Below are positions 4,763 to 38,496 of a stretch of 64,000 nucleotides of DNA, piece by piece. A program made the translations under genes and the position numbers. The notes under the pieces are model-generated. The model was given only the letters and a program-made list of their open reading frames with translations. It ran no database searches and was not told the origin of the DNA. How positions within the stretch are numbered: position 1 is the stretch's first letter; every line of letters begins with the position of its first letter. The stretch is taken from contig OY969814.1 of the NCBI GenBank assembly GCA_963703345.1, positions 1,152,001 to 1,216,000 on the forward strand, written 5' to 3'. The stretch is from an uncultured Chloroflexia bacterium. GTDB taxonomy: Bacteria > Chloroflexota > Dehalococcoidia > DSTF01 > JALHUB01.

Positions 4763-4850
4763 AGGGAGTGCAGAGGGCCTCCTCTGCCGGGGGTCAAGGG
4801 GGTGTCCCCCTGATTCCCCGAAAGACCTTTGAGGGCGGGTGGGTGGGAAA
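4763..4850 (+). repeat. Family-1 repeat, ORF-less copy (two hairpins + GGGN tract)
   Basis: GCAGAGG-gcct-CCTCTGC CGGGGG TCAAGGGGG-TGT-CCCCCTGA ... GGGCGGGTGGGTGGGAA; homologous to 15782-15876 and 32119-32217. Confidence 0.85.
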
Positions 4851-4935
4851 GAGATCGCTGATGTTTCGGCGACCACGCAGAGCGCCCTTCTGCGCGAATT
4901 CGCGGCTCAATAGAACCGGCGGTCGCCACGACGGC

Positions 4936-15526: not shown

Positions 15527-15628
15527 ATTCCCGAACCTCAGTTTAGCGAAGAAACGCTGCCATCGCAAGCACGAAACGGCAAAGCAAGGGCTGCTACACT
15601 TGATGCCTCGTCGAGTTGCGCAACCACC

Positions 15629-15718
15629 GGGAGTCCAGAGGGGCGGAGCCCCTTTGGCGGGGGCGACAGGGGGTGTCCCCCTTGATTCGTTGTGCAACGT
15701 GGCTGGATAGGTGGAAAA
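15629..15718 (+). repeat. Family-1 repeat, degenerate ORF-less copy
   Basis: CCAGAGGGGC-gga-GCCCCTTTGG CGGGGG..CAGGGGG-TGT-CCCCCTTGATTC; the G tract is decayed. Confidence 0.7.
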
Positions 15719-15781
15719 CAAGAACGATCTTTCCCATCACCCTCTCACGCCATGTGGATGTCTCTGCGATTCGCCGGTGTC

Positions 15782-16310
15782 GAGGAATTGCAAAGGGATT
15801 CCTCCCTTTGCCGGGGTTTCAAAGGGGTGTCCCCTTTGAGATTCATGTAAACCTTCCTGGGCGGGTGGGCGGGAAGCACACCATTCATCAGTCCGAAGCG
15901 GCAGCCCCGCGGGGGGCCGGGCTGACGTCGGAAGCCCGCTGCCAGGCGAAAGGACTTCAATGCCACGCGGAGGACGACGCCCCGGCGCAGCCGAAGGCTC
16001 GCCTAGGAGAGGAGCCCCGAAGGGCAACCTCAACGCCCTGAAGACCGGCGCCTACTCTCGACAGCTCAAGGCCGCCATCAGCGCCCTGCTCGACCACCAC
16101 GAAACCCGGCCTGTCCTCCTCGCCATCCTTGAGCAGAAGCGACGCGACCGGCTCCGCTTTCAAGCGCTCATGATCGTCAGCGCCAGGCTCCTCCAGAATG
16201 GTCGGCTTTCAGCCACAATTCGACGCAAATTAGAGCAATATCTTGAATCTGAATGTGCACACATCGAATCTGGAAAAAACGCGAAAAAACAGTTGAATTC
16301 AATGGTCAAT
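15782..16310 (+). mobile_element. Family-1 composite element, copy A (structured leader + small ORF + palindromic end)
   Basis: Colinear homology with 31665-32217 (minus) through leader, ORF and TTGAATTCAATGGTCAAT end; flanks unrelated. Mobility is inferred, not shown. Confidence 0.6.
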
Positions 16311-16328
16311 CAAAGCTGGCCCGCTTGA
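15960..16328 (+). CDS. Small basic protein with GAPKGNLNALKTGxYS motif (HGGxSTG/terminase-small-subunit-like motif)
   Basis: AAAGGA SD; paralog at 31684-32037 with synonymous-type differences. Confidence 0.75.
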   Translation: MPRGGRRPGAAEGSPRRGAPKGNLNALKTGAYSRQLKAAISALLDHHETRPVLLAILEQKRRDRLRFQALMIVSARLLQNGRLSATIRRKLEQYLESECAHIESGKNAKKQLNSMVNQSWPA

Positions 16329-31606: not shown

Positions 31607-31664
31607 GTGGAATGCATCTTAGCATCCGCGACGCGCTGGCTGAATCGCGGGGGCGGCGCGTCGA

Positions 31665-32217
31665 ATTGACCCATTGAATTCAATTACTTTTTCGCGCCTC
31701 TTCCAGATTCGGGATGCGCGCACTCAGATTCAAGATACTGCTCCAATTTGCGTCGAATTACGGCGGACAGCCGGGCATTCTGGATGAGTTTGGCGCTGAC
31801 GATCATGAGGGCCTGGAAGCGGACGCGCTCGCGGTGCTTGTGTCGCATGATGGCGCGGAGGACGGGCCGAATGTCGTCGTTAGCGGCCATGGCGTCGATG
31901 GCGGCCTGGAATTGTCGGGAGTAGCGGCCGGTCTTGATGGCGTTAAGGTTGCCCTTCGGGGCTCCCCTCCGAGGCGAGCCTCCGGCCCTCCGAGGGGAGG
32001 CTTCGGCGGCGGCGGGCTGGCGTCCTGCGCGTGGCATGGGAGCGTCTCCTGTCGCTTGGCGATGGGCTTCCGCCACCCTGGCCCCTTGGGCTGCCGCGTG
32101 GTGGACATCGATGCTGTTCTTCCCGCCCACCCACCCAGTGAAGTTAATCACGAATTTCAAAGGGGACACCCCTTTGAAACCCCGGCAGAAGGAGAAACTC
32201 TCCTTCTGCACTTCCTC
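31665..32217 (-). mobile_element. Family-1 composite element, copy B
   Basis: Colinear homolog of 15782-16310, located inside the glycan operon next to the DUF3800-like gene. Mobility is inferred. Confidence 0.6.
31684..32037 (-). CDS. Small basic protein with GAPKGNLNAIKTGRYS motif, paralog of 15960-16328
   Basis: AGGAG SD; shares RFQALMIVSA and IRRKLEQYLESECAH with copy A. Confidence 0.75.
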   Translation of the reverse strand: MPRAGRQPAAAEASPRRAGGSPRRGAPKGNLNAIKTGRYSRQFQAAIDAMAANDDIRPVLRAIMRHKHRERVRFQALMIVSAKLIQNARLSAVIRRKLEQYLESECAHPESGRGAKK

Positions 32218-32441
32218 TGTTTGCAGGTGACAGGGCCAGGATATATGTTCGAGGGAAGGTTGCCAAGGGATTGGTGGCACGTGAATGCGACGCCAGCGTG
32301 GGGCAGGAAGGTCAAAGCATAGGGAAAGCCAACCCGACTGGGAAACCGAAGCCGGAGACGCCGAAGGTTTGAGCGTATTGTGCGGAAAATGTGAACGTAC
32401 AAAAGAATCGCGTAACCCAGGACTAGAAGCCAAGGTCGCGC

Positions 32442-33317
32442 TTATAGCGGGCCCTCTGAATATGCTCTCTGAATGGCGTTCGCTTGGTCGCGCTTGACCT
32501 TCGAGAGCAGATCATCGAAATAACGCTTGTCCGCTGTCCTGATATCCGCCTTTTTCCGCGTTAAGACCCTGAATGCCCGGGTTAGCTCGGCGTTCAGGTT
32601 ATCGCATAGCTTGCGATTCCATACATAGGCATAAAGATCGGCTGCCTGGAGACCTGGCTCCTTCTCAGAGTCAGCAAACGTGAGATCGTTAAGCGCATCA
32701 GTGTCGGTGTCCGCGTGATCCTTGAATGTATTAAAGGTCGCCAGTGCTCTAGCCTCGGATTCCCGTTTTCTGTCGAGGTATATGTGGATTTGGGAGTCGT
32801 GGGCGGCCCTACATGCCAACAATGCCTCCACTAAGAATCCAGGGAACACGACGAAGTATGGTCGAGTTGGGGCGGACTCATGAGCCAACAGCTTCTGAGT
32901 GACTTCAAACTGGTCTTCGTGCCATCGCGTCCTGGTCAAGAGAACAGCTCCGGTCAGAAACCGTCGCTCAATCTCCGAATAAGCGAAAAAATCTCGATTC
33001 TTGCAAGCTCCGCCCACAGGCTGTAGCTGATAGCGATGGATTGTGTCCAGTAGCCTAGTCAGGAGCGCTGCCGCCTTCTGCGGCTTCCATCCGTGATATG
33101 GACTCTCTGAACTTTGCCAAGTGGCCTTCTGGAAGAACTCCTTAGCATGGAATTCCCGCTGCTTGCCGTCCTTCGGCGGTGGCAGTATCTCTAGCGCGGA
33201 ATTCCAGTCGCGGCGAAACAACTTCCATTGATGCGGCGATGCGACGTAGCCGAGAATCAGAGTGAAGGGGGCGCCATCCTGTGATCCGCTGTCATCGCCG
33301 TAGGCATGGAGAGCCAT
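32442..33317 (-). CDS. DUF3800-like protein (RNase H-like fold)
   Basis: N-terminal AYGDDSG, EFHAKEF, C-terminal LQAADLYAY; lower GC than flanks; GGAGG upstream of ATG 33317. Confidence 0.75.
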   Translation of the reverse strand: MALHAYGDDSGSQDGAPFTLILGYVASPHQWKLFRRDWNSALEILPPPKDGKQREFHAKEFFQKATWQSSESPYHGWKPQKAAALLTRLLDTIHRYQLQPVGGACKNRDFFAYSEIERRFLTGAVLLTRTRWHEDQFEVTQKLLAHESAPTRPYFVVFPGFLVEALLACRAAHDSQIHIYLDRKRESEARALATFNTFKDHADTDTDALNDLTFADSEKEPGLQAADLYAYVWNRKLCDNLNAELTRAFRVLTRKKADIRTADKRYFDDLLSKVKRDQANAIQRAYSEGPL

Positions 33318-33450
33318 AGCGATCAGGTGCCTCCCCTTGTGATATGGATACTCGCCCCTGCCAGTTACTAAGAGCATTTTGCACCGCGCAGGTTACTGAG
33401 GCAAGAATATTGTTGCCCTGGAAAGTCTCGGCTACGTGGTTGTTGGGGGG

Positions 33451-36935: not shown

Positions 36936-38324
36936 TCAAGTGATTCTCTCGTGCTCCAGAAGCTCCTTGACCGTGATGGGCACGATGTCCAGACCGTCGT
37001 GTTGATTGGCGCGTTTAATCTCCTTCATGGAGTCAGAGCTGAATCCGAAGGCTATGAAGTAGCCGCGCAGGCGCTTATCGCGGCGCATGGCTGTCTCGAA
37101 GTTGTCAATATCCGGACGGCCAGCGCGATCCTGTTGCTTGACCTGAATCGGATACCACCTGTCAAGCGTTTCGAAGAAATCCCCTTTTCTTCCCTTTTCT
37201 ATGTCAGCCAGGTAGAGGCGACCGTCGATGCCGTAGTCGCCCACCTTGACCTCGTTGGGTATGCCGCCAAGAGCGATGACCGCCCAGTTTTCAAACTCTC
37301 TATGAGGTATACGCCGGAGATCATCCTCGGTCTTAGGCATATCGATTAGCCTGAAGTCGATGCCCTCTTTAAGACCTAGCCGCTTATCGAGTCTTTGGGC
37401 CATGACTCTGCAAGCTGTAGGCGACATATCAATGCCGATCCACCGGCGCTTGGACTTTGCAGCAGCCTCCAGCGTAGTGCCACATCCGCAGAAGGCATCG
37501 AGCACGATATCCCCCTCGTTCGAACTCGCCTTGACGATCCGCTCCAAGAGCGCCAACGGCTTTTGTGTCGGGTAACCCAATCCCTCGCTTGACCAAGAAA
37601 CAATTGGAAGGATGTCAGTCCAGATTGACTGAAGGGGTGTGCCGGGCAGCTCATCTAGGTAGCGTTTGTACCGCGGAATGCCCCTCTTGGTGTAGAAGAT
37701 GCGTCCCTCCGCTTCCAGCTTTTCCATGTTTACGAGGGTGAATCGCCAATTGCGCGTGATCCCTTTCCACTCATACCGAGGGCCACGTCCTCCCGGAGCC
37801 GTCAGATCGTCAGAACGAAAGCGACCGCGCTGGTCATGATATCGGAAGTACCGCTCGACATAGATCGGATCGTACTCGGTATATTCAGGATTCCATGTAA
37901 ACTGGTTGGACTTGGTGTAAAACAGGATCGTGTCGTGCAGGTGACCGTATCGCCCAGCGTCGCTGTGAGCTGTCTGCCGCTTCCAGACAATCTCGTTCTG
38001 GAAGTTGTTGAAACTGAAGACCCGGTCTAGTTCCACCTTGATGTAGTGGGAGGCATGCCAATCACAGTGATAGTAGAAGCTCCCCGTTGTCTTTAGAACG
38101 CGGTGAAGCTCCCGTATGCGAGGTCGCATCCAGTCCAGATATGTCATAGCGTCGCCAAAGCGATCCTCGAAGGCCCGCCGTTCCTGCGCCTCACCCCAGA
38201 AGACCTCGTAGTTTCGGCTGCTGTTGAACGGCGGGTCAAGGTAGACGAGGTCAACCGATTCGTCTGGGATATAGTTCGGCATCACCTCAAGGTTGTCGCC
38301 GCAGTAGATAACGTTCGTCTCCAT
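36936..38324 (-). CDS. Beta-class N6/N4 DNA methyltransferase fused to Mrr-like endonuclease domain
   Basis: DPPF precedes YPTQKP and DAFCGCGT; C-terminal EFE..GDYGIDG..IQVKQ; lower GC. Confidence 0.88.
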   Translation of the reverse strand: METNVIYCGDNLEVMPNYIPDESVDLVYLDPPFNSSRNYEVFWGEAQERRAFEDRFGDAMTYLDWMRPRIRELHRVLKTTGSFYYHCDWHASHYIKVELDRVFSFNNFQNEIVWKRQTAHSDAGRYGHLHDTILFYTKSNQFTWNPEYTEYDPIYVERYFRYHDQRGRFRSDDLTAPGGRGPRYEWKGITRNWRFTLVNMEKLEAEGRIFYTKRGIPRYKRYLDELPGTPLQSIWTDILPIVSWSSEGLGYPTQKPLALLERIVKASSNEGDIVLDAFCGCGTTLEAAAKSKRRWIGIDMSPTACRVMAQRLDKRLGLKEGIDFRLIDMPKTEDDLRRIPHREFENWAVIALGGIPNEVKVGDYGIDGRLYLADIEKGRKGDFFETLDRWYPIQVKQQDRAGRPDIDNFETAMRRDKRLRGYFIAFGFSSDSMKEIKRANQHDGLDIVPITVKELLEHERIT

Positions 38325-38496
38325 GTTGGGCCAGATTATACACTGCTCCACCGTCAGGTGGCAGTCGCAGAGGTGCCACACACTCACGAGCTCCCATCAG
38401 CAGGATCGTGGGAAACGGGCTGCCCGTCATAGCGGGCCGCGTCGGGGTGTCACTTCTGCCTTGGAAACGGCGCGCAACGGCGCTACAATCGCCGAC

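Follow-up and report, generated by a model that had tools for sequence, protein, structure and literature searches.

The closest described counterparts of the elements reported here are mobile units that exploit a terminase not their own. In E. coli, the PICI protein Rpp is a small protein that redirects the helper TerS (PMC6739421), and in SaPIs terS lies under LexA (PMC5052747 and PMC6092414, passages on terS). TerS binds TerL through its C-terminus (PMC6854486, passages on TerS). GTAs have TerS proteins without a DNA-binding domain (PMC6854486 and PMC11841831, passages on TerS), and the cited passages of PMC6854486 state that no packaging start sites are known for GTAs.

Transposable elements supply a second comparison. 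IS91/ISCR elements and Helitrons share a signature of one fixed end, a variable other end, no target duplication and carry-over of flanking DNA.

We analysed a stretch of 64,000 nucleotides (the window) from the genome of an uncultured Dehalococcoidia bacterium (G000; the relatives compared are G001 and so on), which is a single contig of 2.28 Mb with 64% GC. The window holds members of an element family whose predicted action is nearest to that of PICI TerS/Rpp and whose appearance is nearest to an ISCR end, although it belongs to neither group. What it has in common with PICIs and SaPIs is a mobile unit whose small protein is related to TerS or redirects it, putative LexA control (as in SaPI operon I), a predicted target site of its own and a presumed dependence on a terminase and capsid made by others. 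PICIs and SaPIs measure about 10-15 kb, however, whereas these elements span 0.1-0.6 kb with at most one small gene, are dispersed in about 20 copies and lack an integrase, a replication module and att sites. The presumed helper here is a resident, domesticated operon. This operon resembles RcGTA and other GTAs: it is single-copy, near-universal in its order and SOS-boxed, and its TerS-position protein lacks the N-terminal motif of viral homologues, much as the TerS of GTAs lacks a DNA-binding domain. It differs from them in the dispersed candidate start sites and the separate candidate specificity subunit, and the element family itself is not the GTA. As in IS91/ISCR, the elements have a fixed end 3' of the gene, a variable upstream extent, upstream carry-over and no target duplication, but no Y2 transposase lies in or near them and their only gene encodes a protein of 90-200 aa with a TerS motif. 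The family is apparently undescribed: in the open full texts searched, we found no description of such elements, no paper with a GAPKGN, GGQPGN or HGGxSTG motif, none on GTAs or TerS in Dehalococcoidia or Chloroflexota or on such repeats, and nothing usable on the LexA box of Chloroflexota.

Results

Two copies of the element lie in the window

The original prediction, drawn from the letters of the window, had described two copies of one element in unrelated contexts. Both copies are real: an alignment of copy A (15782-16310, plus strand) with copy B (31665-32217, minus strand) covers 561 nt, of which 75% are identical (E 2e-106). Their neighbours are indeed unrelated, with tRNA-Ala and CoA-transferase genes at copy A and DUF3800 and glycosyltransferase genes at copy B. 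The features of the window are as follows.

15628-15728, plus strand: degenerate second REP-like two-hairpin repeat 5' of copy A, outside the element proper (profile match; genome 1167628-1167728)
15779-15888, plus strand: REP-like repeat, the 'leader' of copy A, in the 5' region of the gene (profile match; folds)
15960-16328, plus strand: copy A mini-gene, 122 aa, MPRGGRRPG..GAPKGNLNALKTG TerS-type N-terminal motif, then predicted helices (dN/dS 0.13-0.33 in the subfamily)
16220-16314, plus strand: copy A right end, 63% AT, two GAATC repeats 21 bp apart, A-tract, TTGAATTCAA palindrome, CAATCAAA (1 of 13 genome-wide matches)
31664-31760, minus strand: copy B right end, running past the stop codon
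31684-32037, minus strand: copy B mini-gene, 117 aa
32105-32222, minus strand: REP-like repeat, the 'leader' of copy B, between promoter and gene (profile match)
32236-32266, minus strand: copy B sigma70-type promoter, -35 TTGGCA, 17-nt spacer (from the sequence)
32265-32280, minus strand: copy B left motif, GTGCCA-N6-CCCTT
32442-33377, minus strand: DUF3800 gene in the variable slot left of copy B
36936-38387, minus strand: DNA methylase gene in the variable slot left of the third motif
38447-38490, plus strand: third left motif and promoter of the window, without a recognised right end (same site in G008)

The predicted G-tract, SD and basic ORFs are all there (122 aa, pI 11.3, in copy A; 117 aa, pI 11.6, in copy B), as is the terminal TTGAATTCAATG(G)GTCAAT, which lies past the stop codon in copy B. 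In copy A, the right end overlaps the 3' end of the mini-gene. Two leader hairpins with compensatory changes had also been proposed; both fold, and A and B have different bases on the two arms of the first stem. The reading of the 3' end as a DNA-level signal stands, since it continues beyond the copy B stop codon, and it withstood the comparison of paralogs. The limits of the unit, in contrast, had been cut wrongly: the leader is separate, and homology of copy B to its relatives starts ~60 nt further 5', at the left motif and promoter (32239-32280). At copy A the left motif was not found in G000; it is present at the orthologous site in G002, G003, G007 and G008. Leader, gene and right end each also occur apart elsewhere in G000.

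Anatomy of the element family

G000 carries a family of about 20 small polar elements, composed of a left motif with a promoter, an optional mini-gene and an AT-rich right end, and most of them are gene-less. We regard this anatomy as secure, with high confidence. The left motif, GTGYCA-N6-CCCTT, is fused to a sigma70-type promoter. At scores above 20 it occurs at 18 sites in G000, 13 of which formed the training set, against none in the reversed strand, and at 22 sites in G008, outside the training set, against 1 in the control. The type I right end is ~90 bp long, with two GATTC/GAATC words 21 bp apart, an A-tract, TTGAATTCAA and CAATYAA. There are 13 in G000; the pattern occurs in all eight other genomes of the genus and in one other genus (10 of the 41 genomes searched), and never in the backward control. 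A type II right end (GGTCAAT, ~60 bp, AAACAAATACAATCA) was found at six more G000 places. The left and right ends are unrelated sequences, without terminal inverted repeats. Four G000 elements contain the gene, and the others hold 120-250 bp of non-conserved filler.

The same arrangement recurs across the class, in 75 mini-gene loci (80 minus five dropped for a short flank or no motif): the left motif lies 5' of 42 of the 75 (control 4) and CAATCA-type heptamers lie 3' of 63 (controls 9 and 10). Among 41 metagenome loci with the strict right end, 2 have the gene and 21 the left motif, searched as a simple pattern; viral contigs gave no match to the strict right-end pattern.

One G000 element is a hybrid with both end types, and a tRNA-like remnant lies directly to its left (G000:C1:83850-83912, L033). 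A reading of the left motif as a competence promoter found no support at the one DNA-uptake gene examined, which we take to be dprA-like: the motif before this gene is absent from the empty site in G006.

The leader is a REP-like repeat

What had been called a structured leader is a REP-like repeat of two GC hairpins and a G-tract. A profile built from 12 copies matches 24 places in G000, and in only two of these does the gene follow. Two further mini-gene paralogs in G000 have no leader, and class-wide it accompanies 10 of the 75 mini-gene loci, 65 being without it. The repeat stands alone at site A in G017 and at site B in G010 and G013, and one G008 copy retains just a leader stump. In the A/B subfamily of five genomes it lies between promoter and gene, and its stems covary. 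The repeat rides along 5' in a single mini-gene subfamily, and the counts (22 of 24 leaders without the gene, 65 of 75 gene loci without the leader) argue against leader and protein forming one module. The original prediction was to fall if paralogs lacked its parts and a common REP explained them; this proved so for the leader and not for the end.

In keeping with REP/RAYT systems, the repeat consists of multi-copy extragenic GC hairpins; as for a cognate Y1 (RAYT) gene, G000 has no Y1_Tnp match. An Rfam scan of the window returned two tRNAs and no match to the leader. The elements themselves are like what we take MITEs, REP/REPIN sequences and Rickettsia palindromic elements to be: short and dispersed, with gene-less copies and one in-frame insertion into a protein gene. 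Unlike these, they have no terminal inverted repeats or target duplication, and they possess polar ends, a promoter of their own, coding members and a one-sided slot.

A further copy of the two-hairpin and G-tract repeat lies at 4763-4864 of the window (plus strand), with no family gene 3' of it. Short insertions inside REP-like repeats, for example GAAGGTCCGCCTCTGGAGG and GCCTGCCTGCCGGTAGGCAGG (L002, L029, L074, L092), point to more micro-repeat families.

Polar boundaries and a variable left slot

The right boundary of the elements is sharp and the left boundary ragged. Between G000 and G008, the left kilobase was unshared at 17 of 19 G000 elements and the right kilobase at 2 of 19; the same comparison on G008 elements gave 15 of 22 on the left and 2 of 22 on the right. 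For comparison, flanks were unshared at 27% of random points, at 22 of 116 promoter-like sites whose downstream DNA is shared and at 4 of 24 copies of the REP-like repeat. Between non-orthologous elements, the right end is where 86 alignments break off; five extend into the left flank (by 0.1-1.7 kb) and none into the right.

Four further slots behave alike: in most of G001, G005 and G006 a gap of 15-270 bp separates their flanks, and G000, G003 and G008 hold 1.2-3 kb of differing genes against the left motif. The slot filled by the DUF3800 gene in the window has other genes in G002, G003 and G008, and both gene and element are absent in G001, G004 and G006. The 14 slot genes scanned include a methylase, OLD-type and NucC-like nucleases, an AAA ATPase, and NB-ARC/TPR, beta-propeller, RCC1 and S74 types. 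Five of them matched defence-type models (methylase, OLD/GajA, NucC-like, AAA ATPase and TPR); nine matched none, many genes being those of secreted repeat proteins. Of the 159 stretches specific to G000, only 18 are in contact with an element. Variable genes also fill some slots without a complete element, and cargo-free elements occur at site A and in three G008 insertions.

The methylase gene in the window has a possible nuclease domain; at this site G008 likewise has the left motif, bordering different content. In G006, the slot before an EF-G-like gene (G006:C3:336700-342700, L125) holds 5.2 kb and then a right end without the left motif; a small ORF in it presumably encodes a serine-recombinase-like protein.

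Insertion at lineage-specific sites

The elements inserted at lineage-specific sites. A 99-bp right end lies in frame inside an IMS-family (DinB-like) gene in G000, G002, G003, G007 and G008 and is absent in 10 others (30 loci, of which 19 were processed and 15 parsed). Site A is empty at least in G001, G005 and G011, and site B at least in G001, G004 and G006. A different mini-gene subfamily occupies both sites in G002 and site B in G003, and three G008 elements are missing from the same place in G000. These sites, empty in sister genomes, favour one of the earlier proposals, a minimal mobile element, as a small element of mobile type.

Also as first noted, there is no transposase, terminal inverted repeat or target duplication; no clear duplication marks the in-frame insertion or the three G008 insertions, all of them old. 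Age is likewise indicated by the 13 of 22 G008 elements that sit at G000 sites and by the 75% identity of A and B. As regards a fixed tetranucleotide target of the kind used by IS91/ISCR, several type II ends overlap TCA, the stop codon of a convergent gene, and these junctions are old.

The insertion in the IMS/DinB-like gene (G000:C1:314444-315751, L031) adds 33 codons and leaves the frame open in all five genomes; the region 5' of the gene contains a REP-like repeat and a LexA-type box. Type II ends that finish on the stop TCA of a convergent core gene are found at G000:C1:1665240 and 1737005 and at G008:C1:1206970 and 1420070. At the empty site A of G001 and G005 (L075, L076), the 3' part of tRNA-Ala is partially duplicated next to the intact tRNA, and what we take to be a T-box-like leader precedes mgtC/leuS genes there.

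A TerS-type motif in the mini-gene protein

The mini-protein family is large (933 clusters at E 0.001). Its gene occurs in 26 of 41 genomes of the order, named relatives are nearly all from Dehalococcoidia, and purifying selection acts on it (dN/dS 0.33 and 0.13, 21 pairs). The N-terminal motif matches TerS families, the PHROG match covering residues 13-34 only. Against four viral TerS-type proteins the profile probability is 97.8% over 25 columns, the motif only, and in viral contigs the motif is found in a 117-aa gene that lies 5' of those for terminase and portal. The TerS-type motif that had been recognised by eye is thereby borne out by family and viral profile matches, over ~25 residues.

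Beyond this motif the likeness ends. Like the phage TerS families phrog_1889 and TerS_not_xtmA (NF040601), the mini-protein has the GAPKGNxNA-K-G motif, and its gene has a candidate binding site in its own 3' part. Pac sites lie inside the 3' part of terS. Unlike phage TerS, it has the motif only, shows no oligomerisation region by profile and is not adjoined by terL, with no TerL-like match within 3 kb of the mini-gene at any of 80 loci. It scored 26 bits against the whole-protein cut-off of 120 for NF040601, and compared with the resident TerS-position protein described below the profile probability was 0.3%, the helical part being without similarity. The C-terminus is not conserved. A structural model (pLDDT 69, pTM 0.34) is helical after residue 25, and Foldseek searches of viral and PDB structures gave no match at E 0.001. 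Pfam returned no family at cut-off and tblastn against 50,697 GenBank phages no match; the ESM Atlas returned unnamed clusters only, the nearest named family being PF10668, a lead at 0.80 on 14% of members.

A resident phage-head operon

Homology to a viral terminase led to a chromosomal operon with TerL-like, portal, capsid and adaptor genes in G000 and G008; the PF03237 model had missed the resident TerL-like gene. Its assignment as TerL draws on a Terminase_6C match below threshold and on its resemblance to the viral terminase (38-39% identity). The gene is present in 39 of 41 genomes of the order, nearly always once, and in 101 of 151 genomes of the class, mostly once. In G000 it is spread over three frames, and the portal gene is interrupted by a 14-kb island that includes a gene we take to be serine-recombinase-like. 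No integrase or replication gene was recognised in the G008 operon when its ORF list was inspected by eye and 13 of the ORFs were scanned.

Of 30 loci, 27 yielded a TerS-position protein, in every case without the motif; at one head-operon locus a motif-like word occurs elsewhere in its 1.5-kb upstream. The alignment of the resident protein with viral TerS begins at the residue that follows the motif (70%, E 4e-5). Vertically kept head genes, judged without a tree, and a TerS without the DNA-binding region are what GTAs show, and on gene content the operon may be a candidate maker of GTA-like particles. The TerL-like gene occurs in 21 of 24 class genomes with the mini-gene and in 80 of 127 without it, a comparison confounded by kinship; two of the three mini-gene genomes that lack it are 95% complete.

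Boxes of the type GAAC-N4-GTTC, presumably the LexA consensus, overlap the promoters of a dinB-like gene, three head-operon genes, copy B and both G008 copies, and a further boxed promoter precedes a gene that we read as lexA. The copy B box is GAAC-N4-ATCC, a box type shared with the dinB-like and head-operon promoters. A promoter-constrained scan gave 12 matches against 5 in the reversed control. The box has a fixed promoter position in the A/B subfamily; class-wide it precedes 22 of 66 mini-genes, against 16 and 13 in controls, and is not enriched.

The head operon spans G000:C1:612000-646900 and G008:C1:957300-972200 (L190-L191), with TerS-position, TerL-like, portal, scaffold-like, capsid and adaptor genes. 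An element lies inside it, after the portal gene, in both genomes, and in four metagenome contigs (L270, L277, L279, L280) the scaffold-like gene of this operon is separated from the major capsid gene by a right-end motif.

Discussion

The fixed right end, the ragged left end and the left-only turnover call for a directional process initiated at the right end. We tentatively favour, as the first of five ranked explanations, that the elements move by hijacking the packaging of the resident GTA-like head machinery. The mini-protein would bind the CAATYA/A-tract right end of its own element and, after SOS induction, couple to TerS or TerL of the resident operon. A cut made at the right end would then set off packaging leftwards, through the element into neighbouring genes. 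In a recipient, the fragment would recombine via the element or flanking core genes and replace the slot content; on occasion it would insert elsewhere, as a copy of 99 to 600 bp truncated on its left. Gene-less copies would be served in trans.

What points to a packaging hijack is that the element's only protein has a TerS-type motif and the TerS of the host packaging kit is without it. The lack of a Y1 or reverse-transcriptase gene in G000, the failure to find a Y2 gene and the precedents of Rpp and of SaPI terS under LexA point the same way. Several findings weigh against it: the TerS similarity is confined to ~25 residues, the mini-protein C-terminus is not conserved, the G000 TerL-like gene lies in three frames beside a split portal gene, 3 of 24 mini-gene genomes have no TerL-like gene, LexA-type boxes are not enriched class-wide, and there are slots without a complete element, elements without cargo and copies that are old. 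Known pac packaging, moreover, runs downstream of terS, and a hijack here would need to run upstream.

A more specific form of the packaging hijack, which we consider doubtful, is a split TerS, in which the GTA-like operon keeps the oligomerisation half and selfish mini-elements carry the recognition motif and a pac-like end. A transfer particle that is otherwise non-specific would then gain about 20 polar start sites, each driving its own spread, and the DNA left of each element would become a hot slot for defence and surface genes. The elements would be both a GTA satellite and a means of capturing genes without a transposase.

A somewhat unlikely alternative is a non-autonomous one-ended transposon, rolling-circle or of another single-strand type, whose oriIS-like right end would be nicked in trans and copied leftwards to a variable stop, the mini-protein being an accessory binder. 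The fixed right end, variable left extent, missing target duplication and left-flank carry-over all fit such an element, and insertion into an ORF is easier by transposition than by transduction. Against this, the 41 genomes gave no Y2_Tnp match (control genomes gave none either), Y1_Tnp had no match in G000, G002 and G006, and RVT_1 had none in G000, G002, G003 and G008. Nor did any large gene recur against the end in 41 metagenome loci, as read from ORF starts, and the TerS motif is left unexplained. Two related candidates were rejected: retro-insertion, with a fixed 3' end and truncated 5' end, for want of RVT_1 in the four genus genomes searched, of poly(A) and of a duplication; and IS200/IS605, whose guide and cut words we take TCAA/GAAT to be, for want of a Y1 gene in G000.

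Passive recombination anchors are unlikely. An old duplicated promoter, DNA-binding gene and operator would be kept as regulatory cassettes and would recombine ectopically with incoming DNA, from transformation or unbiased GTA transfer, without dedicated machinery. The copies are indeed old and position-stable within the subclade, and the different subfamilies at sites A and B in G002 and G003 are what gene conversion would give. Slots can outlive the element, and the elements lie in intergenic gaps tolerant of insertions. Plain homology, however, would act on both sides, and here slot turnover and shared flanks are confined to the left; REP-like repeats, which are just as abundant, do not behave in this way (4 of 24), and the in-frame 99-bp and cargo-free insertions need a mobilising step.

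We consider it improbable that the protein is a packaging decoy, a TerS-motif mimic that would occupy pac-like DNA or poison the phage or resident terminase, with the element collecting in defence hot spots. The motif common to TerS of Chloroflexota viral contigs and the five slot genes of 14 with defence-type models would fit, as would the additional block of helper packaging by Rpp (PMC6739421). Most copies are gene-less, however, nine slot genes have no defence model, and the polarity and mobility of the end are left unexplained. Very improbable is the remaining idea, from the original prediction, of a structured leader RNA and protein acting as an RNA-protein regulator or toxin-antitoxin pair: leader hairpins covary and lie between promoter and gene in the A/B subfamily, yet the leaders without gene, the gene loci without leader, the G008 stump and the missing Rfam match contradict obligate co-occurrence, and nothing speaks for a toxin-antitoxin cassette.

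Whatever the mechanism, a transposase-free polar family marks the sites at which a large uncultured class exchanges accessory and defence genes, and this family lacks the defining features of MITEs, REPs, PICIs and ordinary TerS. Should the packaging hijack be true, the elements would be the first sequence-specific start sites and the first parasite of a GTA-like particle, with a bearing on why GTAs are kept and whether GTA packaging is neutral. The 25-residue motif and the 90-bp site would together be a candidate portable packaging signal, and movement by hijack would be a new way for genes to spread.

Occurrence in other lineages

G104, a complete genome from another order, has at least 27 dispersed mini-gene copies, one of which adjoins a reverse-transcriptase gene (778.7 kb, 780.6 kb), and the family of G104 often has 2-4 TerL-like copies. 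Relatives of the mini-gene were also seen in one gammaproteobacterial record (a Colwellia MAG, L375) and in one Planctomycetota record (L334).
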